Positions 8,554 through 58,645 of a stretch of DNA of 64,000 nucleotides are shown here, piece by piece. The stretch comes from Candidatus Cloacimonadales bacterium (lineage in GTDB: Bacteria > Cloacimonadota > Cloacimonadia > Cloacimonadales > JAFGVF01), in NCBI GenBank assembly GCA_963677495.2, contig CAXXOU010000004.1, forward strand, positions 576,001 to 640,000, in the 5' to 3' direction. A model generated the notes under the pieces. It ran no database searches. It worked only from the letters and a program-made list of their open reading frames with translations, and was not told the origin of the DNA. The position numbers and the translations under genes were made by a program. Position 1 is the first letter of the stretch. Every line of letters begins with the position of its first letter.

Positions 8554-11136
8554 ATGAAAAAGATTGTATTGTATATTCTATGTTTAATGCCTTTAATATT
8601 ATATTCAACAATTTGGCATGTGAATCAAGATGGAACAGGAGATTTCGTTTCTATCCAAGCTGCTGTGAACAATGCGAATAATGATGATACAATTTTGATT
8701 CATGAGGGTGTCTATTATGAACATGTGCAAACAAGTAACAAACCTTTAACATATGCAAGTTTATTCTATCTGGATAGTGATGAATCGCATATTGGTAATA
8801 CAATTTTGGATGGGCAACACTCGCATCCGCTAATGACACATGATAATGATGTTTTCGGGAGTAACATATCCATTATTGGGTTAACATTTAGGAATGGGAA
8901 TAGAGAGGAAGCTACAGATACGTACTGTGGCGGAGGTGCTATAGGAGTTCAAAGAGCTACGCTTACATTAAACGACTGTAGTATTTACAATAACTATGGG
9001 ATTATTGGAGGTGGAGTATTCACTCGAAACTGCCAAGTCTTTCTTGCTGGTAATTCGATAAGAAATAATAGAGCGTTTACTGCAGGTGGTGGTGTATCTT
9101 TTATCTTTAATGGAGGAGATAGTTATCCAGTCATCTTTGATGGAATTAATTTGAATAGTTTTTACTCAAATCTTTGTTGGTTTGGTACTGATATGAATCT
9201 TTATCAAATCAATGAGGAACACATCAGCGAGATTGTAGCAGATACTTTGAGTGTTGCAGAATACGATAATTACTGCAATGTTGTAAAAATAAGATTAGGA
9301 TCAACACACAGTAACCTTCCAGTTAATGCAAATACTGAAACTCTTCCTCGTGTTGAGTCCAATCTTTATGTTGCTCCTTGGGGTGATGATAATAATGATG
9401 GGTTAACATCTTTTTCTCCTTTCAAGTCGATAATGCAAGCGTGTATGATTATTTCTCCTAGAGTTGATAGTACTCTAATTATATATTTGCTACCTGGAGA
9501 ATATAATAACTCTAATCAAAGATGTCTACCTGTAAACGTAAGAGATAATACTATCATTTCAGGAGAATCTCCAGAAACAACTATCATCAATTGTGACCAG
9601 ATGACTAGTGCTTTTATTAACAGAGTCGGATCATGCAATTTTGAAATTGAGAATCTATCAATAATAAACTGTAGTGTCGGTGCTGATAATTATTATTCTT
9701 CTATTAGTCTTAATACTTCTCAGTATCCATCAAAAGTTAAAATTCGAAACTCCAAATTTTATAATGACTACATGTATCAAAGCACAGAAGCTCAATTTTA
9801 CGTTAATGTTGTCGGTGTCACGTTGGATATATGTGATACAGAATTTGGTAACGAAAACTTGGAAGCCTTGATTCCTCAAAAATCTGTCTTTTGTAATGAA
9901 GACTATTTTTCTCAAGATTTTAACAGTATAAGTAATTGCACATTTTATGGGCAAAATGAGACTATTTGTTTTAGTTCTCAATTCAATTCGAACTTGCTCA
10001 TTTCAAATTGTTTATTTGATTATTCTCAAACTTATAACTACGAGGCAGATCCGTTTCTTGTGAGATATGGAATAGCAATTGAAGGAAAGGTTGATGCTAA
10101 TATTATCAATAATACATTTTACGGAAATCATCCAGCTGGGCAATTAGATGGTCTAATTACGATCATATATTCAAATTATGATACAGGTGGGAATAATGTT
10201 AATGTTAAAAATAATATAATGATTGATAATTTTACTCCTACCAGTAATAACTCAGTGTATGTAGATAATCACTATGGTCCTTGGGCAACAAATGTTAATG
10301 TAGGTAACAATTTAGTCTTAGGAGGGGAAAGCACAGTTGGTTATCCCAATTGGGAAGAAGTGACTTTTAACTACGAAGATACGAACATTGATACAATACC
10401 TCATTTCACAGGATATGGAGTAAACAGATTTATGCTGGATGATGATTCTCCTTGTATAGATGAAGGTACACTGAATCTACCTGATGGATTCGAACAACCT
10501 GAAACTGATTTGGTAGGTAATCCTCGTGTGCATGGTGAGAGTATAGATATGGGTTGTTATGAATGGCAAGGGAATGTAGCTGATTTCACAATGCAGGCAA
10601 TGGGGAATGTGTTCCCTATTGATGTTGTGTTTACTCCACACTACAACTTCCCAATTGATACAATTGCCTGGGACCTTGATCTTGATGGTGTGATTGATAG
10701 CTATGAGATGAATCCAGTCTGGTCATATCCTGATTTCTCTGGACATAATGTTGGCATGTACATAAATGATGGGGAAGCTATTGAGATTAAGTATGACTGC
10801 ATACAGCCTACTACCCCGATATTAGAAGAAACGAACGATACACCTGAAGCTAATGAGTTATTAGCTTGTTATCCTAATCCCGTGCGAATCTCAACTGGTA
10901 ATGTTATACTGAAGTACAATGTCAAAGATGTTGGAAACGCAGAGTTGAAGGTATACAATATCAAAGGTCAAATGGTGAAATCCATTAAGGTTAAAAGTCA
11001 ACGTAAAGGGCGTAATACTATCTTCTGGTATCTTACTGATAATCGGGGTGTGCATGTCTCTTCGGGAGTGTATCTCTACAATCTTGAACAGAATGGTGAA
11101 AGTATAGGTAAAGGTCAGATAACGGTGGTGAAATAG
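8554..11136 (+). CDS. Secreted parallel beta-helix protein (DUF1565/choice-of-anchor Q-like, PKD-like) with a FlgD-Ig/T9SS-type C-terminal domain
   Basis: Signal peptide, DGTGDFVSIQAAVN start motif, YVAPWGDDNNDG, SPCIDEG...DLVGNPR...IDMGCYE, C-terminal YPNP...YNIKGQMV...SSGVYLY. Confidence 0.8.
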   Translation: MKKIVLYILCLMPLILYSTIWHVNQDGTGDFVSIQAAVNNANNDDTILIHEGVYYEHVQTSNKPLTYASLFYLDSDESHIGNTILDGQHSHPLMTHDNDVFGSNISIIGLTFRNGNREEATDTYCGGGAIGVQRATLTLNDCSIYNNYGIIGGGVFTRNCQVFLAGNSIRNNRAFTAGGGVSFIFNGGDSYPVIFDGINLNSFYSNLCWFGTDMNLYQINEEHISEIVADTLSVAEYDNYCNVVKIRLGSTHSNLPVNANTETLPRVESNLYVAPWGDDNNDGLTSFSPFKSIMQACMIISPRVDSTLIIYLLPGEYNNSNQRCLPVNVRDNTIISGESPETTIINCDQMTSAFINRVGSCNFEIENLSIINCSVGADNYYSSISLNTSQYPSKVKIRNSKFYNDYMYQSTEAQFYVNVVGVTLDICDTEFGNENLEALIPQKSVFCNEDYFSQDFNSISNCTFYGQNETICFSSQFNSNLLISNCLFDYSQTYNYEADPFLVRYGIAIEGKVDANIINNTFYGNHPAGQLDGLITIIYSNYDTGGNNVNVKNNIMIDNFTPTSNNSVYVDNHYGPWATNVNVGNNLVLGGESTVGYPNWEEVTFNYEDTNIDTIPHFTGYGVNRFMLDDDSPCIDEGTLNLPDGFEQPETDLVGNPRVHGESIDMGCYEWQGNVADFTMQAMGNVFPIDVVFTPHYNFPIDTIAWDLDLDGVIDSYEMNPVWSYPDFSGHNVGMYINDGEAIEIKYDCIQPTTPILEETNDTPEANELLACYPNPVRISTGNVILKYNVKDVGNAELKVYNIKGQMVKSIKVKSQRKGRNTIFWYLTDNRGVHVSSGVYLYNLEQNGESIGKGQITVVK

Positions 11137-11140
11137 ATAA

Positions 11141-11180
11141 TAGCCTATAGCCTAAAGCCTAAAGCCTAAAGCCTATAGCT
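11141..11180. repeat. Heptamer tandem repeat (AGCCTAW)n
   Basis: tagcctatagcctaaagcctaaagcctaaagcctatagct, about 5 units directly after the stop codon. Confidence 0.8.
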
Positions 11181-11470: not shown

Positions 11471-11560
11471 TGGTGCTGAAGAAGGGACTTGAACCCCCAC
11501 GTCCTAATTTCGGACACTAGAACCTGAATCTAGCGTGTCTACCAATTCCACCACTCCAGC
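11471..11560 (-). tRNA. tRNA-Leu (anticodon CAG)
   Basis: The reverse complement reads GCTGGAGTGGTGGAATTGGTAGACACGCTAGATTCAGGTTCTAGTG...GGGGGTTCAAGTCCCTTCTTCAGCACCA: D-loop, anticodon stem CTAGA/TCTAG with loop TTCAGGT, long variable arm, T-loop GTTCAAGT and encoded CCA. Confidence 0.97.
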
Positions 11561-11753: not shown

Positions 11754-13043
11754 GTGACTATGAGTGAAGCTTTCAATGCCTTTGAGATGGTTCAAAAGCA
11801 ATTTGATTCTATTGCTGATAAACTTGATTTGAACAGTGCAGCAAGAGATTTTCTGAGAAACCCTATGCGAGAATACCATTTCCTTATTCCTGTTAAGATG
11901 GATGATGGTTCAACCAAAGTGTTTAAAGGTTTTAGAATTCAGCACAATGATGCTTTAGGCCCAGCTAAAGGAGGAGTTCGATTTCACCCACTAGAAACAG
12001 TTGATTTAGTCAGAGCTCTAGCAATGTGGATGACTTGGAAAACCTCAGTTGTAGATCTGCCTTTAGGTGGGGGATATGGGGGTGTTATCTGCGATCCTCA
12101 CCATTTATCAATGAGAGAACAGGAGCTGATATGTCGAGGTTGGGTTAGACAGCTTGGTGATAATATAGGACCGTTGAGGGATATACCGGCACCTGATATT
12201 ATGACTTATAGTCAACATATGCTGTGGATTCTTGATGAGTATGAGATGATGCATGGGAAGAAACTTCCGGGTATGATTACAGGCAAACCTGTAGAGTTGG
12301 GTGGTTCATTAGGTAGGACAGAATCGACAGGATACGGACTGATGTTTACAGTACGGGAAGCATTAAGAGAATTAAAGATTCGACCTGATACTACAACAGC
12401 TGTGTTCCAGGGATTTGGTAATGTAACACAACATGCGATTAAGCTTTATAACCAATTAGGTGGTACTGTTCTAGGTGTATCCTCCTGGAACCCTAAACAG
12501 CATACTGCAACACTATATATGAAACCGGAAGGAATAAACCTGAAAGAACTTCAAGAGATAACAGATAGATTTGGAAGCATTGATTGTGATAAAGCTGAAG
12601 AGTTGGGCTATGAACTACTTCCCGGTGACAAATGGATTGAACAGGAATGTGATATACTTGTTCCTTCAGCATTAGAAAACCAGATTACTGTGGAGAATGT
12701 CGGACTCATCAATAAACAGGTTAGAATAATAGCTGAGGGAGCAAATGGACCAACAAGTCCTGCTGCAGACGATATTCTCATGGATAGAGGAATCTTCGTT
12801 ATCCCTGATGTTCTTTGTAATGCCGGTGGAGTTACATGTAGCTATTTCGAGCAGGTTCAGTCAAACATGAACTACTACTGGTCTAAGGATGAAGTTATCA
12901 GCAAGCTGGATGTTAAACTGACTAAAGCATACCATAAGGTTGCTGAACTAGCTCGAAGGAAAAAGCTTTATATGCGTGAAGCAGCCTATATGATCGCAGT
13001 TGACAGAGTAGTACGGGCAGCACAAGAAAGAGGGTGGATATAA
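11754..13043 (+). CDS. Glu/Leu/Phe/Val dehydrogenase family protein with catalytic Lys replaced by Tyr (possible pseudo-GDH)
   Basis: GPAKGGVRFHP, MTWK, PAPD, ITGKP..GGS.GR, EGANGP and NAGGV are present, but GGGYGG replaces GGGKGG. Confidence 0.9.
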   Translation: MTMSEAFNAFEMVQKQFDSIADKLDLNSAARDFLRNPMREYHFLIPVKMDDGSTKVFKGFRIQHNDALGPAKGGVRFHPLETVDLVRALAMWMTWKTSVVDLPLGGGYGGVICDPHHLSMREQELICRGWVRQLGDNIGPLRDIPAPDIMTYSQHMLWILDEYEMMHGKKLPGMITGKPVELGGSLGRTESTGYGLMFTVREALRELKIRPDTTTAVFQGFGNVTQHAIKLYNQLGGTVLGVSSWNPKQHTATLYMKPEGINLKELQEITDRFGSIDCDKAEELGYELLPGDKWIEQECDILVPSALENQITVENVGLINKQVRIIAEGANGPTSPAADDILMDRGIFVIPDVLCNAGGVTCSYFEQVQSNMNYYWSKDEVISKLDVKLTKAYHKVAELARRKKLYMREAAYMIAVDRVVRAAQERGWI

Positions 13044-14782
13044 TGAATGAGAAAATGAAATCAGGTCAAAGATTTGATAGATTAAGTGGATTCTTTTCAG
13101 ATACTTTCAGCTACATAGGTAGGGGAGAACCGGGAGGTAAAGCTTCGGGTTTAGCATTCATGCAGGATGTTATTAAGAAGAGATTTCCTGATAATGAGTT
13201 TGATGGAATTAAGATCAATATCCCGAGTATGACAGTTCTCCTTAGTGGTGTATTTGAAGATTTTATGGAGGATAACAATCTCTATGAAATAGCACTTTCT
13301 GATGCGTCTGATGTAGAGATTGCTCTTGAGTTTCAAAGAGCTTCATTAGGAGCAATATACACCGGTGATCTTAGAAGCATTATTGAAAGCATACACCAAC
13401 CTTTAGCTATTCGCTCTTCAAGTATCTTCGAGGATTCAATAGACGACCCCTTTGCCGGTGTCTATGAAACTAAAATGATACCTAATAATCAGATAGATAA
13501 AGATCAAAGGTTTAGAGTATTAATGGAAGCAATTAAGTTTGTATATGCTTCTCTCTTCTTTAAAAACTCTAAGGAGTACTTTCTCTCATTAAACAGAGAT
13601 ATTCGTGATGAGAAGATGGCAATCATAATTCAGGAAGTTGTTGGTAATAGGCATGGTGACCTTTTTTATCCTACAATCTCCGGTGTTGTTAAATCGTATA
13701 ATTTCTACCCAACAAACAATGCAACTCATGAAGAAGGGATAGCTACACTTGCTCTTGGTTTGGGGAAAACCGTTGTAGAAGGGGAGAAGGCTTGGAGTTA
13801 CTCACCTATGCACCCAACAGCACCACCCCCATTTAACAATAATCACGATATATTGAAATACACACAAACTGAGTTCTGGTCAATAAATATGAATCAGGTT
13901 TGCTGTTACGACTCTACTCAGGAGACTGAGTATTTAAGCTACCAATCAATTTACGATGCCGAAGAACATGATACACTTAAGCATATCTGCTCTACGTTCG
14001 ATAGTTTAAACGATAGAATAACTATAGGAACTGCGTATGCCGGTTCACGAATCATTGACTTTTCACCCCTGCTCAAGCTTGACATGATACCTTTGAATCC
14101 TCTTATCAAAGAGTTAATGAAGGTTTGCGAAGAGGAGAGTGGAAATAAGGTCGAGATGGAATTTGCGATGACAATTGATCCTGAAGGATATGATAAACCA
14201 AGGTTTGGATTTCTACAGCTAAGACCAATAAGTATTAGTGATAAGATTGTTGATATTAACGAGAAGTTGTACAATGCAGATAATATGCTCATTAAATCAG
14301 AACAAGTAATGGGAAATGCACAGATTGATAGTATAATTGATATTGTGTTTGTGAAACCTGATTGCTTTGACCCAAAAGCGTCTTTAGAAGTTGCTATGGA
14401 CCTAGCTGAGATAAATGCTGAGTTGATACAGAACAAGAAGCAGTACCTTCTAATGGGATTTGGCAGATGGGGAACATCTGATCCTTGGATGGGAGTACCG
14501 ATTAAATGGTCTCAAATATCAGGAGCAAAAGTCATTGTTGAAGCAATCTTACCTCAAATGAGATTTGATTTCAGTCAGGGATCACATTTCTTCCACAACA
14601 TGACAGCTCATAATGTTATATATTTCTCAGCAAATCTGGAGATGAGTAATGCTATAGACTGGGATTGGCTGAAATCTCATGAAGTTATTGAAGAAACAGA
14701 CTATATTCTTCATGTACGAACGAAGAAACCAATAGAAATATATGCAGATGGGCGTTCGGGTAAAGGAGTAATTCTTAAATGA
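13043..14782 (+). CDS. PEP/pyruvate-binding (PPDK_N/PEP synthase-like ATP-grasp) domain protein
   Basis: GGKASGL, AIRSSSIFEDS...FAGVY, MAIIIQEVVG, GLGKTVVEG, EMEFA and LQLRP motifs. The ATG at 13043 overlaps the upstream TAA (the ORF track uses GTG 13034). Confidence 0.85.
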   Translation: MNEKMKSGQRFDRLSGFFSDTFSYIGRGEPGGKASGLAFMQDVIKKRFPDNEFDGIKINIPSMTVLLSGVFEDFMEDNNLYEIALSDASDVEIALEFQRASLGAIYTGDLRSIIESIHQPLAIRSSSIFEDSIDDPFAGVYETKMIPNNQIDKDQRFRVLMEAIKFVYASLFFKNSKEYFLSLNRDIRDEKMAIIIQEVVGNRHGDLFYPTISGVVKSYNFYPTNNATHEEGIATLALGLGKTVVEGEKAWSYSPMHPTAPPPFNNNHDILKYTQTEFWSINMNQVCCYDSTQETEYLSYQSIYDAEEHDTLKHICSTFDSLNDRITIGTAYAGSRIIDFSPLLKLDMIPLNPLIKELMKVCEEESGNKVEMEFAMTIDPEGYDKPRFGFLQLRPISISDKIVDINEKLYNADNMLIKSEQVMGNAQIDSIIDIVFVKPDCFDPKASLEVAMDLAEINAELIQNKKQYLLMGFGRWGTSDPWMGVPIKWSQISGAKVIVEAILPQMRFDFSQGSHFFHNMTAHNVIYFSANLEMSNAIDWDWLKSHEVIEETDYILHVRTKKPIEIYADGRSGKGVILK

Positions 14783-17700
14783 TCCATAGTGGTAACAACC
14801 ATAATCAGTTGGAATCTCAGTTAACAGAAAGACGTAAAGAACTTGCTTGTATCCATAAGATGATAGAAATAACATCTGATTACTCTTCAGACTTTAGTGT
14901 TATATTTAATAGAATACTAGAGATTATCCCCGCAGGATGGCAGTATACTGATACCTGCTTTGCAGAGATTGAGTATATGAATAGTATATACTGTCTTCGC
15001 AAAGATCTTACACCAAAGTATTCCCAACAGAAGTCCTTGAGTATGAATGACAACTATTTCGGTGAGATTAAAGTCTACTACTCTGAAGTTCCCAAAGGCT
15101 TCGAAATAGCACCATTTCTTGATGAAGAGGTAGCATTACTTAGTACTTTGGCAGAGATGTTATCAACATATCTAGTTGTCAGAACTTTTACAGAGAACCT
15201 TGAAACACCTGGGACAAATCCAGAGCTGGAACATAAAGATTGGAAGATAGTACTCAAAATGCTCCAGGATACGGATTATAGATTGTATCTAAAAGTAGCA
15301 CGCAAGTTGATTAACCTTCTTTATCAAAGAGGTATCCCAGAAGTTAAGGAGATATACTACTCTACAGGAATAACAAGATCAGAATCTGACTCAGAGGATA
15401 TCCTCGATGCAAACAAACCTTTGAAAAAGCAAGATTATCTTGATATGGAGGTTGTTAGTAAGAAGGTGTTCGAAATCGCTGAGAATTGTTTACCGAATGA
15501 GGAAGTTCTTGAGTATATTCATAAATGGATTCAAGAGGATAAGTTAAGTTTCCTAATCACTGCATTAGAGGATAAGTATACGTCTCTTGCCGAGCTACAA
15601 GATGTGATTGCAAGATATCAGCATCTTAAGATAAGCAAGGAGAGCTTATCACCATATTCTCAGTTAAATCTGAAAGTGTTACTTATTCAACGACTCTTTA
15701 CATCGCAGTTAGAATTTATTAGAATAGCAAAAAATTACATCCAGATAGAAGATTTCTATGATGTACTTCAACATACTATTTCTCCAAAGAACTCTCATGG
15801 AAGATTAGGAGGTAAAAGTACCGGTTTATTCTTCGCGCATAATATCATAAAGAGCGAGACAGACCTTGAATTTCAGAAAGGTATAAAGACCCCCAAGAGT
15901 TGGTATATAACTTCTGACGCCATGCAGTCTTTTGTGCACTATAACAATCTAGAAGAGGTTATTGAACAGAAATATAAGGATATTGAGCAGATAAGGGCTG
16001 AATATCCCAATATTGTACAGATGTTCAAGAACTCCTATTTCCCACATGATATTGCTAAAGAGCTTTCCCAAGCTCTTGATTCATTCGGAACTTCACCAAT
16101 AATTGTCAGAAGCTCATCATTATTGGAAGATAGTTTTGGTACATCCTTTTCCGGAAAATATAAAAGTCTATTCTTAGCTAATCAGGGCAATAAAAAGGAA
16201 AGGTTAAGTGCTTTAATGGATGCCATTGCTGAAGTATATGCTTCTGTAATTGCTCCTGATCCTATCGAGTATCGAAAGGACCATGGACTTGTAGACTTCC
16301 ATGAAGAGATGGCTATCATGATTCAAGAGGTTGTTGGCACAAAAGTAGGAAACTATTTCCTTCCTGCTTTTGCAGGAGTAGCATTCTCCAATAATGAGTT
16401 CAGATGGTCACCTAGAATCAAAAGGAACGATGGTTTAGTAAGATTAGTTCCGGGCTTAGGGACTAGGGCAGTAGATAGAGTCAGTGATGATTATCCTGTT
16501 TTAGCTTCACCGGGACAGCCTGGTATTAGAGTTAACGCTTCACCGGATGAGATACTAAAATATTCACCTAAGTTCCTAGATCTGATAAATCTCGAAACTA
16601 ATACTTTTGAAACTCTCCCAATTCAAAAAGCACTGAAACTGTTTGAAGATGATTTCCCAATGCTAAACAGAATCTTTAGCGTTAATGAGAATGGTTTTAT
16701 TCACCAAAAAGCAGTATTCAATATTGACTTTGAGAAAGATGACTTAATAGTTACCTTCAGGTCTTTGATGACTGATACAAATTTTATGAAACGGATAAAG
16801 AGAATCTTAGATGTTCTTGAAGACAAAATGTCAACTCCAGTGGATATTGAGTTTGCAGTAATCAACAATGATATCTATCTTCTTCAATGCAGACCTCAAT
16901 GTTTCTCTAAAGAGGTTGAGCCTGCTCCAATTCCTCAGGATATTCCGGAAAAAGAGATTCTGTTTACAGCTCGAAAACATATCTCCAATGGCAGAATCCC
17001 GGAAGTGACACATCTTGTTTATGTAGACCCTACAGAATATACACAGTTAGAGACCTTAGAACAGTTAAAATCTGTTGGTAGGTGTGTCGGAGAGTTGAAT
17101 TCGGTTCTACCAAAGAAGAAATTTATACTGATCGGGCCCGGGAGATGGGGAAGTAAAGGTGATATTAAACTGGGTGTTGATGTCTCCTATTCTGAAATAA
17201 GCAATACATCTGCCTTAATTGAGGTGGCTAAAGAACAAGCAAGCTTTGCTCCTGATCTTTCATTTGGTACTCACTTCTTTCAAGATCTTGTAGAATCAAC
17301 AATTAGGTACATCCCCTTATATCCAGATGAGAAGGATAATGTCTTTAATACTGAGTTCTTCAAGAAGAGTGAGAGTATACTTCCAACCTTGTTACCGAAA
17401 TACTCTGAGCTAGGGAACTGTATAAAAGTTATAGATATTCCGAAAGAAACTGATGGTAATGTACTTAAAATCTTTATGAATGCTGATTTGGAACAGGCAA
17501 TAGCATATTTTGGCGTAGCAGATAACCGAAAAAGAAGTTCAAGTAAGGCTTATTATGAAGATGAAAATACTGATAACTTCTGGTTATGGAGATTACAAAT
17601 GGCAGAATTTCTTGCCTCACAATTAGATGCTAAAAGATATGGTGTGGTTAATTTATACATTTTTGGTAGCGTTAAAAACGCTACTGCCGGACCGGGTAGT

Positions 17701-17940
17701 GATATAGATCTTTTGGTTCACTTCAGAGGAAACGAGATTAAAAAGCAACAGTTACTAGCATGGTTTGATGGATGGAGTAGATGTCTTGGTAGAATGAATT
17801 ACCTAAGAACCGGTTATAAAACTGATGGTCTTCTTGATGTACACATCATAACGGATCAAGATATCTCTGACAAAGACAGCTTTGCAATCAAAATTGGGGC
17901 TGTAACTGATGCAGCAAAACTACTTAAGGTGCGCAAATGA
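14779..17940 (+). CDS. GAF-like + PPDK_N-type ATP-grasp + C-terminal nucleotidyltransferase multidomain protein
   Basis: N-terminal ERRKELAC..PAGWQY..FLDEE; LGGKSTGL, IVRSSSLLEDS..FSGKY, IQEVVG, GLGTRAV, DIEFA, LQCRP; C-terminal YIFGSVKNATAGPGSDIDLLV...LDVH (Pol-beta NTase GS..DxD..D). Confidence 0.85.
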   Translation: MIHSGNNHNQLESQLTERRKELACIHKMIEITSDYSSDFSVIFNRILEIIPAGWQYTDTCFAEIEYMNSIYCLRKDLTPKYSQQKSLSMNDNYFGEIKVYYSEVPKGFEIAPFLDEEVALLSTLAEMLSTYLVVRTFTENLETPGTNPELEHKDWKIVLKMLQDTDYRLYLKVARKLINLLYQRGIPEVKEIYYSTGITRSESDSEDILDANKPLKKQDYLDMEVVSKKVFEIAENCLPNEEVLEYIHKWIQEDKLSFLITALEDKYTSLAELQDVIARYQHLKISKESLSPYSQLNLKVLLIQRLFTSQLEFIRIAKNYIQIEDFYDVLQHTISPKNSHGRLGGKSTGLFFAHNIIKSETDLEFQKGIKTPKSWYITSDAMQSFVHYNNLEEVIEQKYKDIEQIRAEYPNIVQMFKNSYFPHDIAKELSQALDSFGTSPIIVRSSSLLEDSFGTSFSGKYKSLFLANQGNKKERLSALMDAIAEVYASVIAPDPIEYRKDHGLVDFHEEMAIMIQEVVGTKVGNYFLPAFAGVAFSNNEFRWSPRIKRNDGLVRLVPGLGTRAVDRVSDDYPVLASPGQPGIRVNASPDEILKYSPKFLDLINLETNTFETLPIQKALKLFEDDFPMLNRIFSVNENGFIHQKAVFNIDFEKDDLIVTFRSLMTDTNFMKRIKRILDVLEDKMSTPVDIEFAVINNDIYLLQCRPQCFSKEVEPAPIPQDIPEKEILFTARKHISNGRIPEVTHLVYVDPTEYTQLETLEQLKSVGRCVGELNSVLPKKKFILIGPGRWGSKGDIKLGVDVSYSEISNTSALIEVAKEQASFAPDLSFGTHFFQDLVESTIRYIPLYPDEKDNVFNTEFFKKSESILPTLLPKYSELGNCIKVIDIPKETDGNVLKIFMNADLEQAIAYFGVADNRKRSSSKAYYEDENTDNFWLWRLQMAEFLASQLDAKRYGVVNLYIFGSVKNATAGPGSDIDLLVHFRGNEIKKQQLLAWFDGWSRCLGRMNYLRTGYKTDGLLDVHIITDQDISDKDSFAIKIGAVTDAAKLLKVRK

Positions 17941-18809
17941 TAAAAGCTTTGTTTACTTCTGATTTACATGGAAACGAGTTTAAGTACGAGTTCTTGTTTG
18001 AAAACATAGTAAAGCACGTACCGGAAGCTGTGTTTATCGGTGGGGATATTCTGATACCATTTAGCAAGATTAAAGACCAGATATCAGGTAAATCTGATAG
18101 TTTTCTGAACGATTACCTGAGAGTTGAGTTGCTTAAGTTAAAAGAACGATTAAGGAATAAATATCCTGAAATATATGTGATAATGGGTAATGATGATAAT
18201 AAATTTTCTGAAGAGATACTTGATAGCAAGATGTTCGAAGGACTATTGCATTATTGTCATTTCAAGAAGCTTAAGTTTAAAAATTGGGAAGTAGTAGGAT
18301 ATAACTTTGTACCACCAACTCCGTTCATGAATAAGGATTGGGAGAAATTCGATGTATCAAGATTTGTGGATGTTGGATGTTTAGCTCCTTTTGATGGTTA
18401 TCATGACCCTTCAATACCGGAGTATGACCTTAAGTTCTCAACAATCAAAGAAGACTTTGAAACTCTGTTTGATGAAGTAGATACATCCAAATTAATTCTA
18501 TTAGCTCATACTCCACCATATAAATCTAAACTTGATAGGGCTGACCTGGATGGTGTGATGGTTGATCATGTTCCACTTGATGTTTACATAGGATCTATAG
18601 CTCTTCAACGTTTACTTGAAAAACAGAAGTTCTACTTAACGCTTCATGGTCACGTTCACGAATCGACGAGATTAACAGGTGATTATCAGGACACGATTGG
18701 TGAGAACCTATCTATGAATGGTGCATCAGAGCACAATGAAGCAAGTATCATTCTTTTCGATTTGGAGAATCCTACTGAATCTACGAGATTAACTAAGCTT
18801 AAGCCTTAA
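17937..18809 (+). CDS. Calcineurin-like metallophosphoesterase (Icc-related)
   Basis: SDLHG, GGD, MGNDD, AHTPP and HGHVHE motifs. ATGA overlap with the upstream gene. Confidence 0.88.
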   Translation: MIKALFTSDLHGNEFKYEFLFENIVKHVPEAVFIGGDILIPFSKIKDQISGKSDSFLNDYLRVELLKLKERLRNKYPEIYVIMGNDDNKFSEEILDSKMFEGLLHYCHFKKLKFKNWEVVGYNFVPPTPFMNKDWEKFDVSRFVDVGCLAPFDGYHDPSIPEYDLKFSTIKEDFETLFDEVDTSKLILLAHTPPYKSKLDRADLDGVMVDHVPLDVYIGSIALQRLLEKQKFYLTLHGHVHESTRLTGDYQDTIGENLSMNGASEHNEASIILFDLENPTESTRLTKLKP

Positions 18810-19287
18810 TCTTTTGTCCCCAAATCTCCTGTATTTTATGGGCTATTGGGAGCTTTACATGAAATGGTAGCTTTATATGGTTTGGTCGCATAGTAAGAAA
18901 CAGCCATTTGTGCTCAATTATGTTAAATGCTGCTGTAATATCCCATAGAGGTGGGACAACAACGACGACGTTTTCACCAACTCTTTGAAGTTCATTATAA
19001 GAAGCTACCGGGTCGTCCACGTGCTCTATTGTATGAGAACATAGAACATGCTTAAACTGCTTGTCTTTGAATGGAAGATTTGTAATATCATCCACATGAA
19101 CGTAGTTCGGAAGTTCAATATGCTGAACGATATCAGCGTTGATCCCTCCGCCATCTGTTTTCCCGCAACATATATTCAAATCCCACCTTCTACTTTTAAG
19201 AACCTTGTTTTTTAAAATTCGGTAACTAATAATGTTTGTAATATAAAACATAGCGATTACAGACAGGACAATAATTAGGATTAGCAT
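18799..19287 (-). CDS. Membrane-anchored class I SAM-dependent methyltransferase-like protein
   Basis: N-terminal hydrophobic helix, LNICCG, D..NLPFKDKQF..V.CSHTIEHV. Confidence 0.75.
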   Translation of the reverse strand: MLILIIVLSVIAMFYITNIISYRILKNKVLKSRRWDLNICCGKTDGGGINADIVQHIELPNYVHVDDITNLPFKDKQFKHVLCSHTIEHVDDPVASYNELQRVGENVVVVVPPLWDITAAFNIIEHKWLFLTMRPNHIKLPFHVKLPIAHKIQEIWGQKIKA

Positions 19288-19715
19288 AGATTAGCTCCTT
19301 TCAAAGTTTTAGTGAACAAAATGTATTTTCTGGAGAAGAATGAGAAAAGAAAGACAATAGCATTACTGATGAACTTACTTAGTAGATAATGCAAACTTAA
19401 CACTGATGTAAAGTACCACATCGATATAAGGTTCATTATTAGGGAAACCACTCCAATCAATAGATAGATAAGCAGTTCAAATCTAACATGATGTTTTCCT
19501 TTAGGGAAAATGTAACATTTAGAGATTATATAGTTTGTTAGTTGACCTGTAATAAAGGCAGGAGTCGCTGCAACAAGATAGTGAAGATTACACAGTTCAT
19601 GGAGAAGATATAGAACAAGATAGTCTGCAAGAATTGCTCCACTACCAAGAGTTATGTATCTCCACAACTGCAAGCCTGTATGATGTGTTTTGTTTATAAA
19701 TATCTTCTTTATCAA
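19281..19715 (-). CDS. GtrA family membrane protein
   Basis: Four TM segments, Q..RY...G....D pattern, NY..SK..IF, SK motif. Confidence 0.8.
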   Translation of the reverse strand: MIKKIFINKTHHTGLQLWRYITLGSGAILADYLVLYLLHELCNLHYLVAATPAFITGQLTNYIISKCYIFPKGKHHVRFELLIYLLIGVVSLIMNLISMWYFTSVLSLHYLLSKFISNAIVFLFSFFSRKYILFTKTLKGANLC

Positions 19716-19901: not shown

Positions 19902-20291
19902 ATGGAAGATTTATTAGTTATTTTACAAGGGATGGCTATTGGTTCAATATTCCCGGCAGCAATTGGGATTGCAGTTTATTATAGAAAGATTCCAATTGAT
20001 AAGTATCATAGATGGTCTGTAAAAGATATAGGAGAAGATAAAGAAATTGTTTTGAAGAATCTGAATAAACTGAAACTTAAGAGAAGGATAAACAATATAA
20101 CTGATTATGGAAAGGTAATTAGCTTCAAGGATAGAGTAACCGGTTTTAGTTGGGGGAATATGTACGTAATTGAGTTTAAAGAAAACGGGCAGCACAAGCT
20201 ATATTATAATCGAATTCTTCCAACGGTAATGTTGTATGCAAGTCGTGCGACAAGAATAGCTAATCAATTGAAATCAAAGTTATCTATGTGA
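19902..20291 (+). CDS. Hypothetical protein with an N-terminal membrane anchor
   Basis: GGAGG RBS, upstream TTGACT, 129 aa, basic. Confidence 0.6.
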   Translation: MEDLLVILQGMAIGSIFPAAIGIAVYYRKIPIDKYHRWSVKDIGEDKEIVLKNLNKLKLKRRINNITDYGKVISFKDRVTGFSWGNMYVIEFKENGQHKLYYNRILPTVMLYASRATRIANQLKSKLSM

Positions 20292-22445
20292 GAACTCGAA
20301 GATATCGTGATTGAATCCAAAGTTTATAAAGTATTCCGGTTCAGTCTCTTCATTTGAACCTATCCCAACTTTTATAGGTCCCATAATAGTGTCATACCCG
20401 ATTGTTAGAGAAGCTCCATTGACGAAATCACTCCAAGGATCCCAATCATCACTATCAGAGTAGGTTATAACACCAGCGTAGCCCATTAAGTATAGCTTTT
20501 TAAATACATTCCAGTTTAAACCAAACCCGATTGTCTTAAATATTGGGGCAGAAATCTGTTTTGCACGATACCCTGGGAAACTATCAACTCCACCAATATA
20601 AAACTCTTGATATTGGGTTGTTTCTTCGTATCTTTGATATGATCCGTACTCACTGCTGACGCTTAGCGAGAGCCTATCCACAAGTTTATCGCAGAATTTA
20701 ATTTTGCCATGAATCTTTTGTGTTTTAACATCACTTAAATAATCAGGATGAGCGTAGTTATATTTGAGCATGAACAGAGAGCCTGACATAGGGAAACTAA
20801 TATTATCAATAGACTCTTGGTGCACCTTTAGACCAACACCAAAAGATTTGGTCTCCTCATCTAATGAAGTTATATCATTACCTTGAATAATATCAAAATT
20901 GTTATAAAAGAAAAATCCTTCAAGGTTGAAGAGTTGTTCAAAATAGATACCTATTCCGGTAGTAGCACCAAACTCCTGTACTAAGAAACTATCTGTTCTC
21001 CAAAAGTTGCTATCATAGGTGTATAATTTAGATTCCTTATAATATGGGAAAACTCTGAAGTATAGGCCACTGTACCTACCATAGTTCTTAACAAAATCAG
21101 CTTGAACTTCATTTCTACCACCAAGTTCAACTTCCAACAGTAGCTGCGAGTTTTTAACTAGATAGTTAGTGAAATCAAAAACTACACCGGCACTTAAGTC
21201 ATCATAATTGTTATAAGATAGATTCAATGAGAGATGTTTTTGTGGCTTCTCTTTGAGTATAACATAGAGGTATGGTTTTGCGCGATCTTGGATTAATCTT
21301 GGATAGATGTATTCGAACAATCCGGTACTGTAAGCTTTGTTGAAAGCATTAATTATATCTTGTACAGAGTACTTAACATTTTTCTCAAGCTGTAAGAATT
21401 CACGAATCTGTAGAGATGTAAAACCTTTGTTACCTCTTACCTTTATCTTTTGGAAGCTGATTTCATTATATGTTGATAAAGTCGGACGAAACTTTGTAGG
21501 TTGAATCGCCTTTGTTTGAGCGAGTTTAGTTAGTATTTTGATATGCTTTCTAGCTTCCACTTCACCTATGTTGATAATCTCTTTCATCTTCTTGAACTGG
21601 AGATTATTAATACCGGTAAGACCCGGTTCTATAAGTAAGTTACAGCATTCAATAGATTTCTTAACATTTTCAGTAATTGTAATGTTCATTGCCTGGTCGA
21701 AGTTCTGAACAAAATTATTCTTTTCAGGATTCTGTTTAAGGTTACTGTTAACTTTAGAACCGATAACGAAATCAGCACCCATTTCTATAACTGTCTCACA
21801 TGGTAGGTTTTGGACTAAGCCACCATCAACATATAGATTGTTTTTGTAATCAAATGGTTCTAACAAACTTGGAGTGTTCATTGAAGCTCTGCAAACTTCG
21901 TGCAGGCTACCGGAATCAAACTTAACTATCTCTCCTGTTTTGAAGTTAGTTGCAACAGCATTAAAAGGGATTGGTAATGATGAAAATGTATTCATCTCGA
22001 AGTCCGGAGAAAAGAGCTCAAAGAGATGCATTTGTAACTGCTGACCATATTGCAATCCGGATGGTATTTCAGGTAAGAAATGCTTTGATAGAGGGACTTT
22101 AACATTACCATAAGGTTGCCAATGCTTTTGCATAATATGCTTGTCTGAACGATCTGCTGTATCATTAAATAGTAGATTTAGGCTACCGTCTAAGGCAAAC
22201 TTCTCAATCTCAATTGCAGAATATCCTTTGGCATATAGAGCCCCAATTAGTGAACCTATAGATGTACCGGATATATAGTCGGGTTTTAACCCTACTTCAT
22301 CAAGTACTTTAAGCACGCCTATATGTGCATATCCTCTAGCTCCACCGCCACTTAATGCCAATCCAATCTTCTGCTCACCTAGAAGAGGGGAGAATAAGAG
22401 TAGGAATAGTAAAAAGAGGGGTGAAGTTTTAAGCTTCACCCTCAT
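20280..22445 (-). CDS. Patatin-like phospholipase with POTRA and beta-barrel (PlpD/type Vd-like)
   Basis: LSGGGARG, GTSIG, VDGG, then POTRA-like IKVRGN and an aromatic-rich barrel C-terminus. Confidence 0.85.
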   Translation of the reverse strand: MRVKLKTSPLFLLFLLLFSPLLGEQKIGLALSGGGARGYAHIGVLKVLDEVGLKPDYISGTSIGSLIGALYAKGYSAIEIEKFALDGSLNLLFNDTADRSDKHIMQKHWQPYGNVKVPLSKHFLPEIPSGLQYGQQLQMHLFELFSPDFEMNTFSSLPIPFNAVATNFKTGEIVKFDSGSLHEVCRASMNTPSLLEPFDYKNNLYVDGGLVQNLPCETVIEMGADFVIGSKVNSNLKQNPEKNNFVQNFDQAMNITITENVKKSIECCNLLIEPGLTGINNLQFKKMKEIINIGEVEARKHIKILTKLAQTKAIQPTKFRPTLSTYNEISFQKIKVRGNKGFTSLQIREFLQLEKNVKYSVQDIINAFNKAYSTGLFEYIYPRLIQDRAKPYLYVILKEKPQKHLSLNLSYNNYDDLSAGVVFDFTNYLVKNSQLLLEVELGGRNEVQADFVKNYGRYSGLYFRVFPYYKESKLYTYDSNFWRTDSFLVQEFGATTGIGIYFEQLFNLEGFFFYNNFDIIQGNDITSLDEETKSFGVGLKVHQESIDNISFPMSGSLFMLKYNYAHPDYLSDVKTQKIHGKIKFCDKLVDRLSLSVSSEYGSYQRYEETTQYQEFYIGGVDSFPGYRAKQISAPIFKTIGFGLNWNVFKKLYLMGYAGVITYSDSDDWDPWSDFVNGASLTIGYDTIMGPIKVGIGSNEETEPEYFINFGFNHDIFEFSHR

Positions 22446-55266: not shown

Positions 55267-56607
55267 ATGACTATTAATGATTTTATGGCACAAGTCGAAG
55301 TGAAGAATCCGGCTCAGCCCGAATTCATTCAGGCAGTAAGAGAAGTTGTGGAGTCAGTTTGGGAGTATTACCATGCACACCCACGCTACGTAAAAGCTAA
55401 AGTATTAGACAGAATCGTAGAGCCTGAAAGAGTCATTATGTTCCGCGTTCCTTGGATGGATGACAAAGGTGAAGTTCAAGTGAACCGTGGATACCGTGTT
55501 GAATTCAACAGTGCTATTGGACCTTACAAAGGTGGATTACGTTTCCATCCTTCTGTAACTTTATCAATCCTTAAGTTCCTCGGTTTCGAGCAGATCTTCA
55601 AAAACAGTCTTACAACACTCCCAATGGGTGGCGGTAAGGGTGGATCTGACTTTGACGCTAAAGGCAAATCAGATGCTGAAATCATGCGTTTCTGCCAATC
55701 ATTCATGATGGAACTTTTCCGTCATATCGGACCTAACACAGACGTTCCTGCTGGTGACATCGGTGTTGGTGGACGTGAGATTGGTTACATGTTCGGTATG
55801 TATAAGAAACTTCGTAATGAGTTCACTGGTGTTCTTACAGGTAAAGGCCTTAACTGGGGTGGTTCACTTATCAGACCTGAAGCTACAGGTTTTGGTGCTA
55901 CTTACTTTGCTAAAGAGATGCTTAAAACAAAAGATATGACTTTTGAAGGCAAGAAAGTTGCTCTTTCAGGTTTCGGTAACGTTGCTTGGGGCGCTGCTCA
56001 GAAAGTTACTATGCTTGGTGGAACAGTTATCACTATTTCAGGTCCTGACGGATACGTTCTCGATGAAGAAGGTATTAACACACCTGAAAAATTCGATTAC
56101 CTTCTTGAACTTCGTGCATCAAACAACGACCGCGTAAGCGATTACGTTGAAGCATTCCCTAATGCTAAATTCTTCCCTGGCAAACGCCCTTGGGAAGTTA
56201 AAGTTGATGTTGCTATGCCATGTGCTACTCAGAACGAACTTAATGAAGATGATGCTAAAGCACTCGTTGCAAATGGTGTTATTGCTATCTCTGAAGGTGC
56301 TAACATGCCTTGTACTCCTGGTGCAGTTCATGTATTCCTTGAGAACAAAATTCTCTTTGCTCCTGGTAAAGCTGCTAACGCCGGTGGTGTTGCAACTTCA
56401 GGTCTTGAGATGTCACAGAACAGCTTACGTTTCAACTGGACTGCTGAAGAAGTTGATGAAAAACTTCACAGAATCATGTGCGACATTCACGATGCATGTG
56501 TTAAGTTCGGTAAAGACGAAGATGGTTTCGTTGATTACGTTAAAGGTGCAAACATTGCAGGTTTCGTAAAAGTTGCTGATGCTATGCTTGACCAGGGTGT
56601 TGTATAA
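55267..56607 (+). CDS. gdhA: NAD(P)-specific glutamate dehydrogenase
   Basis: GPYKGGLRFHP, FEQIFKN, PMGGGKGGSDF (catalytic Lys intact), PAGDIGVG, RPEATG, EGANMP. Strongly biased codon usage and GGAGG RBS before ATG 55267. Confidence 0.97.
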   Translation: MTINDFMAQVEVKNPAQPEFIQAVREVVESVWEYYHAHPRYVKAKVLDRIVEPERVIMFRVPWMDDKGEVQVNRGYRVEFNSAIGPYKGGLRFHPSVTLSILKFLGFEQIFKNSLTTLPMGGGKGGSDFDAKGKSDAEIMRFCQSFMMELFRHIGPNTDVPAGDIGVGGREIGYMFGMYKKLRNEFTGVLTGKGLNWGGSLIRPEATGFGATYFAKEMLKTKDMTFEGKKVALSGFGNVAWGAAQKVTMLGGTVITISGPDGYVLDEEGINTPEKFDYLLELRASNNDRVSDYVEAFPNAKFFPGKRPWEVKVDVAMPCATQNELNEDDAKALVANGVIAISEGANMPCTPGAVHVFLENKILFAPGKAANAGGVATSGLEMSQNSLRFNWTAEEVDEKLHRIMCDIHDACVKFGKDEDGFVDYVKGANIAGFVKVADAMLDQGVV

Positions 56608-58550: not shown

Positions 58551-58645
58551 GCAGGGAGTAGAGGGTGTACTTATAGTAGTTTTGTGTAAAATAATCTATT
58601 TGACAAATATGAATCTATTATGCTTCTATGTTAATAGGAGGAATA

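Follow-up and report, generated by a model that had tools for sequence, protein, structure and literature searches.

Organization of the operon

The DNA analysed here, referred to as the window, is a 64,000-nucleotide stretch of contig CAXXOU010000004.1 from a Candidatus Cloacimonadales bacterium. Its forward strand carries an operon of four genes encoding a homologue of glutamate dehydrogenase (GDH), two dikinase-like ATP-grasp proteins and a metallophosphoesterase. It represents an uncharacterised but widespread module that centres on a dedicated GDH subfamily and occurs in hundreds of species; new in the window is a version of the module whose GDH has lost its catalytic lysine (a pseudo-GDH). 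An initial annotation had described four genes joined by overlapping stop and start codons, and both the list of open reading frames (ORFs) and the sequence confirm this arrangement: four plus-strand ORFs span 11754/11760-18809, and the ends of neighbours overlap in TAATG at 13041-13045 and in ATGA at 14779 and again at 17937. Gene 1 could start at 11754 or at the ATG at 11760; the latter is the likelier start, because GAGGTG lies just 5' of this ATG and homologues start there. The features are listed below, together with a second GDH gene of the window.

11760..13043, + strand: gene 1, a GDH paralogue of 427 residues from the module-linked subfamily; Tyr106 replaces the catalytic lysine, and to judge from the translation the protein is likely non-catalytic
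12075..12077, + strand: codon of Tyr106, at the position of the catalytic lysine, read directly in the translation
13043..14782, + strand: gene 2, 579 residues; PPDK_N ATP-grasp domain, then a C-terminal domain with an invariant histidine (GSHFF motif), without a barrel
14779..17940, + strand: gene 3, 1053 residues; input domain, PPDK_N, His-bearing domain and Pol-beta-type nucleotidyltransferase
14779..15198, + strand: input domain of gene 3, residues 1-140, with ERxKELxC and IPxGWQ motifs and two near-invariant cysteines
15802..16950, + strand: ATP-grasp domain of gene 3, residues 342-724, PPDK_N
16921..17568, + strand: candidate phosphoryl-carrier domain of gene 3, residues 715-930, with GPGRWG and SFGTHFFQD motifs; the His832 codon is at 17272-17274
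17596..17940, + strand: minimal Pol-beta-type nucleotidyltransferase of gene 3, residues 940-1053, with a GS...DIDLL motif
17937..18809, + strand: gene 4, a calcineurin-like metallophosphoesterase of 290 residues, candidate eraser
55267..56607, + strand: GdhA, given for context only; an intact housekeeping GDH of another class with strong codon bias

A scan of the plus strand detected no terminator-like site within 11754-18809. Upstream of 11760, inspection by eye revealed no sigma-54 promoter, and a scan for sigma-70 promoters returned 28 sites compared with 28.6 in shuffled sequences, that is, no excess. The nearest homologues and the tree neighbours are labelled Cloacimonadota.

Co-conservation of the four genes

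Relatives of gene 3 were confirmed in at least 584 stretches of a collection holding one genome per species, and its full-length homologues, at about 50% identity, number in the thousands (7934 of 8000 scored candidates at E <= 0.001). Gene neighbourhoods were analysed in the best 80 of these 584 or more loci; going by their record titles, these 80 come from more than ten phyla. Of 64 loci with enough flanking sequence, 62 have a GDH 57-73% identical to gene 1 no more than 3 kb upstream of the gene 3 homologue, 60 of them on the same strand, and gene 2 lies directly upstream of the gene 3 homologue in 52 of 74 loci. In 41 of 69 loci a phosphoesterase homologue follows gene 3 downstream at a distance of up to 500 bp, on the opposite strand in 34 of the 41, and the full four-gene set is present in 32 of 58. 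Even where the gene 3 locus has no GDH (five genomes), a 63-66% identical GDH is encoded elsewhere in four. The set proposed in the initial annotation is thus co-conserved across phyla.

Closer relatives show the same linkage. Among 31 related genomes, an identical set of 10 carries the gene-1-type GDH and gene 3; genomes in such counts share ancestry and hence are dependent samples. In one homologue, P0032, genes 2 and 3 are fused, the gene 2 part being 47% identical over 569 residues; 16 of the 120 gene 3 homologues listed have a similar length of 1617-1655 residues, P0032 being the one among them that was checked for fusion. Because of this co-conservation, and because GdhA is only about 32% identical to the module-linked subfamily, we regard the gene-1-type GDH as a dedicated part of the module, distinct from the housekeeping enzyme. 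A search of open-access papers and bioRxiv returned no paper describing this gene set.

Loss of the catalytic lysine in gene 1

Gene 1 matched both Pfam domains of the enzyme, ELFV_dehydrog_N (PF02812, E 1.7e-49) and ELFV_dehydrog (PF00208, E 3.1e-67), and scored 450.9 bits against the NCBIfam model GdhA_Arch, below its cut-off of 750. The structure of RocG (PDB 3k92) matches gene 1 at E 1.2e-105, which places both in the same GDH class. At the catalytic motif the translation (WKTSVVDLPLGGGYGG) reads GGGYGG instead of GG[GAS]KGG, as expected from the earlier claim that gene 1 lacks its catalytic lysine. Tyr106 stands twelve residues past the preceding lysine, and the spacing is equal in the window's GdhA (55267-56607), where the catalytic lysine is present (FKNSLTTLPMGGGKGG). 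This residue is Lys125 in the numbering of Clostridium symbiosum GDH, described in PMC4580590 as the acid/base group of the enzyme.

The rest of the pocket is intact: Lys70, Lys94, Asp146, Ser361 (within a GGVxxS motif) and Gly218/Gly220 (the GFG of the nucleotide fold) are invariant in the GDH alignment, the window protein included. From motif spacing we take the first four to be the counterparts of Lys89, Lys113, Asp165 and Ser380 of the C. symbiosum enzyme. The numbers Lys113 and Asp165 are those given in bioRxiv 10.1101/2024.12.26.630402. When 182 alignment columns at least 95% conserved among 63 Lys-bearing linked GDHs were compared, gene 1 was changed at 10 (K106Y, A11V, I73V, T83L, I100L, V147I, M157I, G179E, A189S and V297C), the Lys-bearing proteins themselves showing a median of 1 and a maximum of 20 changes. 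In G000, the genome of the window and 99.46% complete, gene 1 had a single match at E <= 1e-60 and no second GDH of the gene 1 class was found.

The lysine is kept in 63 of the 68 linked GDHs in which the site is covered and replaced by Ser, Asn or Ala in the other five. Tyrosine occupies the site in G000, G001 and G003, all three genomes of the genus in which it is assembled, while six other genomes of the order have lysine. A quick maximum-likelihood tree of 70 linked GDHs (IQ-TREE, rooted at the midpoint) placed the Lys-less proteins in three groups: the Tyr genus, on a branch of 0.49 nested among Lys-bearing Cloacimonadota; a clade of loci L050, L066, L016 and L038 (support 99); and L028, on a long branch. 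Parsimony on this tree gives three changes of the lysine, at least two of them forced by well-supported branches. The pseudo-GDH state is derived and a minority one, the lysine having been lost in about three independent lineages. The initial annotation had counted a pseudo-GDH among the components of the system; the pseudo-GDH is not its defining part, because so many of the linked GDHs keep the lysine.

One explanation for a Lys-less gene is decay, that is, a remnant in an operon that this genus is losing. The scattered occurrence of the module within the order (10 of 31 genomes) and the long branch to the genus would fit. We disfavour decay and consider it highly improbable, as the Lys-less copies have an open frame, are 85-86% identical across three genomes and have retained the tyrosine in each. 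Moreover, gene 1 departs from the conserved state in only 10 of the 182 columns, and the overlaps of start and stop codons are undamaged. Between G000 and G001 the nonsynonymous distance (dN) is 0.097 for the GDH, 0.104 for gene 2, 0.088 for gene 3 and 0.24 for the phosphoesterase, with synonymous sites saturated (pS, the proportion of synonymous differences, 0.73-0.86); all four genes are under purifying selection. The invariant histidine and the nucleotidyltransferase motifs are intact in 77/77 gene 3 sequences, those of Lys-less modules included.

Relative to gene 3, the Lys-less GDHs have evolved somewhat faster. Expressed as a ratio to the distance between the corresponding gene 3 proteins, GDH distances are 0.66-0.82 for Lys-less GDHs and 1.11 for the Tyr pair, compared with a median of 0.56 (5-95% range 0.48-0.68) for Lys-Lys pairs. 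This acceleration fits relaxed catalytic constraint, and is the rise in rate that the loss of such constraint would produce by itself.

Lys-less GDHs also occur elsewhere, and pseudo-GDHs seem common judging by sequence. Among 148 representative GDHs covering the site in a 50%-identity library, in which the linked subfamily collapses to a few entries, 11 lack the lysine (P0276, P0284, P0288, P0317, P0320, P0338, P0344, P0369, P0384, P0391 and P0292), with Met in four, Arg in two, and Val, Tyr, His, Phe and Cys in one each; most of the 11 also lack the first binding lysine. The Met-type family of P0369 appears unrelated to the module, because a gene-2, gene-3 or phosphoesterase relative lay nearby in 0 of 80 metagenome loci; the site in those loci is Met in 6, Lys in 72, Ala in 1 and not covered in 1.

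It is also conceivable that Tyr106 is not lethal to the enzyme, and that gene 1 is still a catalyst with low GDH activity or with a changed reaction (another substrate or step). The kept pocket residues and the purifying selection on gene 1 are consistent with such a role, and the recurrence of non-Lys forms among the GDH representatives suggests that these may have uses. We find residual or altered catalysis improbable: the lost residue is the acid/base group (PMC4580590), the Ser, Asn and Ala of other module lineages are chemically unlike Tyr, and the Lys-less GDHs have evolved faster relative to gene 3, as under relaxed constraint.

Domains of genes 2, 3 and 4

Genes 2 and 3 had been described as paralogous PPDK_N proteins without the pyruvate-binding barrel, and the profile searches agree. 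PPDK_N (PF01326, E 3.4e-28) is the only Pfam match of gene 2; gene 3 matched PPDK_N at residues 342-724 (E 4.4e-64) and NTP_transf_2/Polbeta at 953-995. The two proteins are 28% identical over 560 residues (E 1e-39), a region comprising the ATP-grasp domain and the conserved domain that follows it, and Pfam detected neither PEP-utilizers (PF00391) nor the PEP-utilizers_C barrel (PF02896) in either. Gene 2 stops after the His domain, and gene 3 continues into the nucleotidyltransferase. The genome encodes canonical PEP-utilizers proteins of its own elsewhere (ORFs of 917 and 546 residues), which, with the missing barrel, argues that genes 2 and 3 are not ordinary phosphoenolpyruvate (PEP) synthases, in line with the initial annotation.

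The N-terminal 140 residues of gene 3, predicted to fold as a helix-helix-four-strand-helix unit, had been called a GAF-like input domain. A hidden Markov model of this domain matched HisKA/HATPase_c kinases encoded beside the module in five of the 80 loci (L041, L042, L055, L065 and L077; E 2e-30 to 2e-39) with a weaker match to a LuxR-type protein in L002. Because the same domain fronts these neighbouring histidine kinases, it is taken to be a true input domain. Its label as GAF-like, on the other hand, is a lead and unproven: Pfam returned nothing on gene 3 residues 1-340, and a feature search gave GAF clusters at 0.86-0.89 only. In the window genome the domain occurs in gene 3 only. The kinases lie at L055:2684-5598, L065:3578-5382, L041:1659-3749, L042:19563-21146 (minus strand) and L077:4172-5494, and are followed by a response regulator in L055 (an NtrC-type sigma-54 activator) and in L065 (a LuxR-type regulator). 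A shared signal may govern the module both through its transcription and at the level of its proteins. Two cysteines of the domain, Cys24 (14848-14850) and Cys60 (14956-14958), are invariant or nearly so across phyla, and from this conservation the pair could serve in metal or cofactor binding or in redox sensing.

The domain that follows the ATP-grasp fold contains the most conserved motifs of the gene 3 family, GPGRWGSxGD and SFGTHFFQD; their counterparts in gene 2 are GFGRWG and QGSHFF. His832 is invariant in 77/77 gene 3 sequences, as is the corresponding His496 of the gene 2 alignment in 48 sequences. In the structural model His832 sits at the start of a helix, as does the phosphohistidine of PPDK. 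Modelled alone, the domain reached a mean predicted local distance difference test score (pLDDT) of 84.5; a feature search of it returned no informative family (scores of 0.82 or less). With the PPDK phosphoryl carrier domain 2fm4 as best fold match, a phosphohistidine domain at residues 715-930 is a reasonable but unproven inference.

The C-terminal domain of gene 3 and the product of gene 4 are a Pol-beta-type nucleotidyltransferase and a metallophosphoesterase, as originally assigned. Pfam NTP_transf_2 was detected in 77/77 gene 3 members. By VIA-align the best match of the nucleotidyltransferase is the HEPN-MNT complex 8xeh_E (Z 8.0, root-mean-square deviation (rmsd) 3.2, 102 residues aligned), followed by 1wot (Z 7.6); Foldseek gave 2rff (E 4.6e-04) and 8xeh_E (E 1.9e-03). 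By fold, therefore, it most resembles the protein-AMPylating MNT antitoxins, which agrees with the earlier view of it as a protein-modifying type; aminoglycoside nucleotidyltransferases are also among the fold matches. Pfam detected NTP_transf_2, Polbeta and MTPAP-like_central in gene 3 and no GlnE or GlnD family domain. Gene 4 matched Metallophos (PF00149) at E 3.3e-09, with 37.9 bits against a cut-off of 21.5, and has the metal-binding motifs DLHG, GGD, GNDD and GHVH.

These relationships raise the possibility of a metabolic role, in which genes 2 and 3 would act together as a small-molecule dikinase made of two proteins, comparable to rifampin phosphotransferase, phenylphosphate synthase or HpeHI, activating a metabolite related to glutamate or 2-oxoglutarate. 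The GDH or GDH-like protein would supply or hold the substrate, the nucleotidyltransferase would make a nucleotide-linked intermediate and the phosphoesterase would end the pathway. The nearest solved folds of the gene 3 ATP-grasp domain by Foldseek are indeed all small-molecule dikinases: rifampin phosphotransferase (5hv3, E 5.5e-13), PEP synthase (2ols, 1.5e-10), HpeI (9goj, 4.0e-09) and PPDK. The next-best NCBIfam models for genes 2 and 3 are PEP synthase, PigC and RedH, all far under their cut-offs (16-74 bits compared with 456-1350); the rifampin phosphotransferase model NF041857 gave 49.4 bits for gene 3 and 16.6 for gene 2, with a cut-off of 999. The aminoglycoside nucleotidyltransferases among the fold matches would suit such a pathway, and overlapping genes are usual in pathway operons. 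GDH catalysis, however, has been dispensable in about three lineages while the other genes stayed intact, and gene 3 has a sensor domain in common with histidine kinases. No transporter or further biosynthetic gene is conserved beside the module in the loci annotated, and the phosphoesterase is mostly on the opposite strand. We judge a metabolic pathway to be distinctly unlikely, and a regulatory reading of the module fits better than a catabolic one; in this respect the initial proposal of a signalling or modification system holds.

Relation of the module to GdhA

The window's second GDH gene had been described as an intact GdhA with highly biased codons, and this is correct: the protein passed NCBIfam NF010633 (801.7 bits, cut-off 743), and its effective number of codons, 37.4, is the lowest among the 27 window ORFs of at least 250 residues, the four module genes lying at 46.6-48.7. 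Its identity of only about 32% to the module-linked subfamily marks it as another GDH class. Of the 31 related genomes 29 carry a GdhA-type gene, irrespective of the module's presence. The gene directly upstream of gdhA (55267) encodes a sigma-54-dependent activator of 744 residues (52722-54956, + strand), whose first 436 or so residues had no Pfam match and may be an uncharacterised sensor region controlling gdhA.

In other genomes a GdhA-type gene can be closer to the module. Among the five Lys-less loci outside the genus, an intact one (GG[GA]KGG) directly adjoins the module in four (L028, L038, L050 and L066), compared with 1 of 63 Lys-bearing loci (L062); the neighbours of the Lys-less modules are 62-65% identical to the window GdhA. 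On the GDH tree the four loci are only about two independent lineages. In L062 a gene-2-like paralogue is found near the GdhA-type gene. In L020 a GdhA-type gene comes right after the phosphoesterase and the GDH-like gene is interrupted by the contig end, and no linked-type GDH was detected in that assembly at E <= 1e-100. In the four adjoining cases, loss of catalysis in the module's GDH may have been followed by recruitment of a catalytic one.

This adjacency bears on the main rival to the reading we favour below. According to it, GDH is a classical target: genes 2-4 would switch GDH catalysis by reversible phosphorylation or nucleotidylation, as GlnE does with glutamine synthetase, and a dead GDH would be an adaptor or regulatory subunit that passes control to a separate catalytic GDH. 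It would account for the lysine kept in most linked GDHs, for the adjoining GdhA-type genes of Lys-less loci and for the gene-2-like paralogue of L062, and it has a precedent in the GdhA of Thermus thermophilus, reported as an inactive regulatory subunit (PMC9570180). In this genus, however, GdhA is not adjacent to the module (36 kb away in the window, about 660 kb in the sister genome G001) and comes with a sigma-54 activator of its own. Mixed hexamers of GDH-like protein and GdhA are unlikely because the two are of different classes and about 32% identical, G000 has no second GDH of the gene 1 class, and the adjacency pattern rests on about two independent lineages. In addition, if genes 2-4 only tuned the catalysis of the linked GDH, loss of the lysine should have made them useless. 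We therefore consider the classical-target explanation unlikely. Action of the module on the GdhA at 55267, which the initial annotation had suggested, is not supported, given the distance between the loci in G001 and the different class of GdhA.

A proposed GDH-anchored signalling or modification device

Since the gene set persists under selection after loss of the lysine, the role of the GDH in the module is at least partly non-catalytic, be it ligand binding, docking or both. Our tentatively favoured reading is that the module serves signalling or modification and is anchored by GDH, the GDH-like protein being its ligand-sensing partner and, in this genus, purely a sensor or scaffold. A hexamer of the GDH or GDH-like protein would dock both dikinase-like proteins, and the N-terminal input domain of gene 3 would read a second signal. 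The PPDK_N ATP-grasp domain of gene 3 would use ATP to load the invariant histidine of the next, swivel-like domain; the phosphoryl group, or a nucleoside monophosphate by way of the minimal nucleotidyltransferase at the C-terminus, would then be written onto a protein partner, from which the metallophosphoesterase would remove the mark. In most lineages the GDH would be catalytically active as well, in the manner of the 'trigger enzyme' RocG. In this genus, with the lysine lost and the substrate and nucleotide pockets kept, the GDH-like protein is most likely a sensor of glutamate, 2-oxoglutarate or NAD(P)H, or a scaffold. What the analysis shows is the anatomy of the genes, their co-conservation, the fusion, the loss of the lysine under purifying selection and the likenesses in fold; we infer that the partners bind, that histidine is phosphorylated and nucleotidyl groups are transferred, and also the target and which way control runs.

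Docking was addressed by structure prediction of the GDH-like protein together with gene 2 residues 20-579, using a 48-row custom alignment for each; with such alignments the benchmark counts hold roughly. The complex scored 0.52 (runs of 0.63, 0.49 and 0.52) and the best of three controls 0.00; the runs agreed in at least 93% of contacts and the pLDDT of the partner was at least 82. In the benchmark 116 of 157 solved complexes attained the mark, as did 2 of 215 mismatched pairs. Given the weak score and the strong genomic prior, the predicted complex lends modest support to a physical association of the GDH-like protein with gene 2.

Several observations weigh against this device. At 0.60 or under the benchmark contains 18 of the 157 solved complexes and both passing mismatches, so that the pass of the GDH-gene 2 pair is weak. 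Of 74 loci 22 lack gene 2, and 28 of 69 have no adjacent phosphoesterase. As most linked GDHs (63 of 68) are apparently catalytic, only a few lineages may use the protein purely as a sensor, and even in this genus some activity, or an altered one, might persist with Tyr106. The solved relatives of the ATP-grasp domain all phosphorylate small molecules. As to the histidine domain, the best fold match of residues 715-930, the PPDK phosphoryl carrier domain 2fm4, is middling (Z 5.2, rmsd 3.7, 114 of 128 residues); Pfam at E <= 10 gave no sequence match to PF00391, either on sub-regions or in any of the 77 members; an hhalign comparison with the central domain of the genome's own PPDK gave E 0.9, no match; and residues 789-842, in the most conserved stretch, have a pLDDT below 50 in the full model.

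GDH stands where the metabolism of carbon meets that of nitrogen; its control in most bacteria is poorly known, above all in anaerobic amino-acid degraders. A dedicated GDH subfamily travelling with sensor-equipped dikinase-like and nucleotidyltransferase enzymes in hundreds of species points to an undescribed layer of control. The catalytic residue was lost in no fewer than two independent events (three by parsimony) while the module stayed under selection, a natural experiment that directs attention to a non-catalytic, ligand-binding or docking role of GDH. A bolder proposal, which we regard as doubtful, is that the module is a new bacterial signal-transduction device in which a dehydrogenase hexamer is the receptor (for glutamate, 2-oxoglutarate or NAD(P)H), a swivelling-histidine pair of dikinase-like and nucleotidyltransferase proteins the writer, and the metallophosphoesterase the eraser, with outputs beyond GDH. 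If so, the level of phosphohistidine on the writer could also follow the ATP/AMP ratio, and the Lys-less lineages would be natural separation-of-function mutants in which the receptor role is the conserved one.

Comparison with known systems

A close parallel in architecture to the dikinase-like proteins is VadK (Rv1127c) of Mycobacterium tuberculosis, a barrel-less PPDK reported to autophosphorylate on His422 and to bind enzymes of the methylcitrate cycle (PMC13400623). VadK likewise combines a PPDK-type ATP-binding domain with a His domain and lacks the PEP/pyruvate barrel, a likeness of architecture; autophosphorylation on histidine and the binding of metabolic enzymes instead of PEP synthesis are traits reported for VadK itself. 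As described there, VadK has no sensor domain, nucleotidyltransferase, paralogous partner or phosphoesterase, all of which the module has. The partners reported for VadK are methylcitrate-cycle enzymes, whereas the module is tied to GDH, and the His domain of the module has no Pfam PEP-utilizers match. With PEP synthase, PPDK, rifampin phosphotransferase and HpeI the module proteins share the ATP-grasp fold and motifs, followed in the same order by a His-bearing domain, whose fold is weakly like the phosphoryl carrier domain of PPDK. Unlike these small-molecule dikinases, they have no substrate barrel or rifampin-binding domain, have added sensor and nucleotidyltransferase domains, and are linked to GDH.

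For gene 1 there are close precedents in two T. thermophilus proteins: GdhA, a catalytically inactive regulatory GDH subunit (bioRxiv 10.1101/2025.10.31.685773; PMC9570180), and ADLP, an alanine-dehydrogenase homologue reported to have its catalytic lysine replaced and to sense NAD(H) (bioRxiv 10.1101/2025.10.31.685773). Like gene 1 these are paralogues of amino-acid dehydrogenases that have lost catalysis, and both are described as binding a ligand and regulating another enzyme. Thermus GdhA, as reported, works in a heterohexamer with the catalytic GdhB of the same class. The analogy to such a regulatory subunit, drawn in the initial annotation, fails here because the module genome has no second GDH of the same class. 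In the published descriptions both Thermus proteins lack the ties to dikinase-like and nucleotidyltransferase proteins that the module GDH has. The module would extend to a wider range of organisms two recent themes, PPDK-derived regulatory kinases (VadK) and dehydrogenase pseudoenzyme sensors (Thermus ADLP and GdhA).

RocG of Bacillus subtilis, of the same GDH class as gene 1, is described as a trigger enzyme that controls GltC (PMC6794564). It thus reports glutamate status to a regulatory partner; in contrast to gene 1, which is likely non-catalytic, RocG is catalytic, and its partner, as described, is a LysR-type transcription factor rather than a pair of ATP-using enzymes.

GlnE and GlnD are Pol-beta-fold nucleotidyltransferases that place a reversible mark on glutamine synthetase and PII, respectively. 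The nucleotidyltransferase of the module differs from them in being a minimal type of about 110 residues, and a separate metallophosphoesterase would remove the mark. It is closer to the MNT/MntA antitoxins, with which it shares the minimal fold with GS...DxD and among which it has its best match (8xeh_E). The MNT structures 7ae9 and 7aer contain an AMPylated protein partner, according to their entry titles. MNT/MntA antitoxins AMPylate HEPN toxins, whereas the domain in the module is the tail of a 1053-residue protein; the MntA model NF047752 gave 21 bits on gene 3 with a cut-off of 60, and Pfam detected no HEPN family among the nine neighbouring proteins scanned.

Other features of the window

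An anti-phage defence system was considered for the module and dropped. PADLOC gave only short, generic matches (PDC-S09 nucleotidyltransferase, 33 bits; PDC-S10 phosphoesterase, 26 bits) and none to the GDH-like protein or gene 2.

Upstream of the operon, a short run of GCCTAAA/GCCTATA-type repeats at 11141-11180 lies just 3' of the stop codon of the ORF 8554-11136 and is followed by a tRNA-Leu(CAG) gene on the minus strand (11471-11560) with a terminator-like hairpin at 11464-11438. Three ORFs of the window, 8554-11136, 49787-52258 (minus strand) and 58628-61618, encode large proteins with type IX secretion C-terminal sorting domains (Por_Secre_tail), one of which starts with a weakly pectinesterase-like region and one of which has beta-helix repeats. 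On the minus strand 3' of the module, the stretch 18799-19715 holds a methyltransferase-like ORF (162 residues, matching the end of the profile only) and, overlapping it, a gene for a GtrA-like membrane protein, and a patatin-POTRA-Omp85 fusion protein of 721 residues is encoded at 20280-22445.

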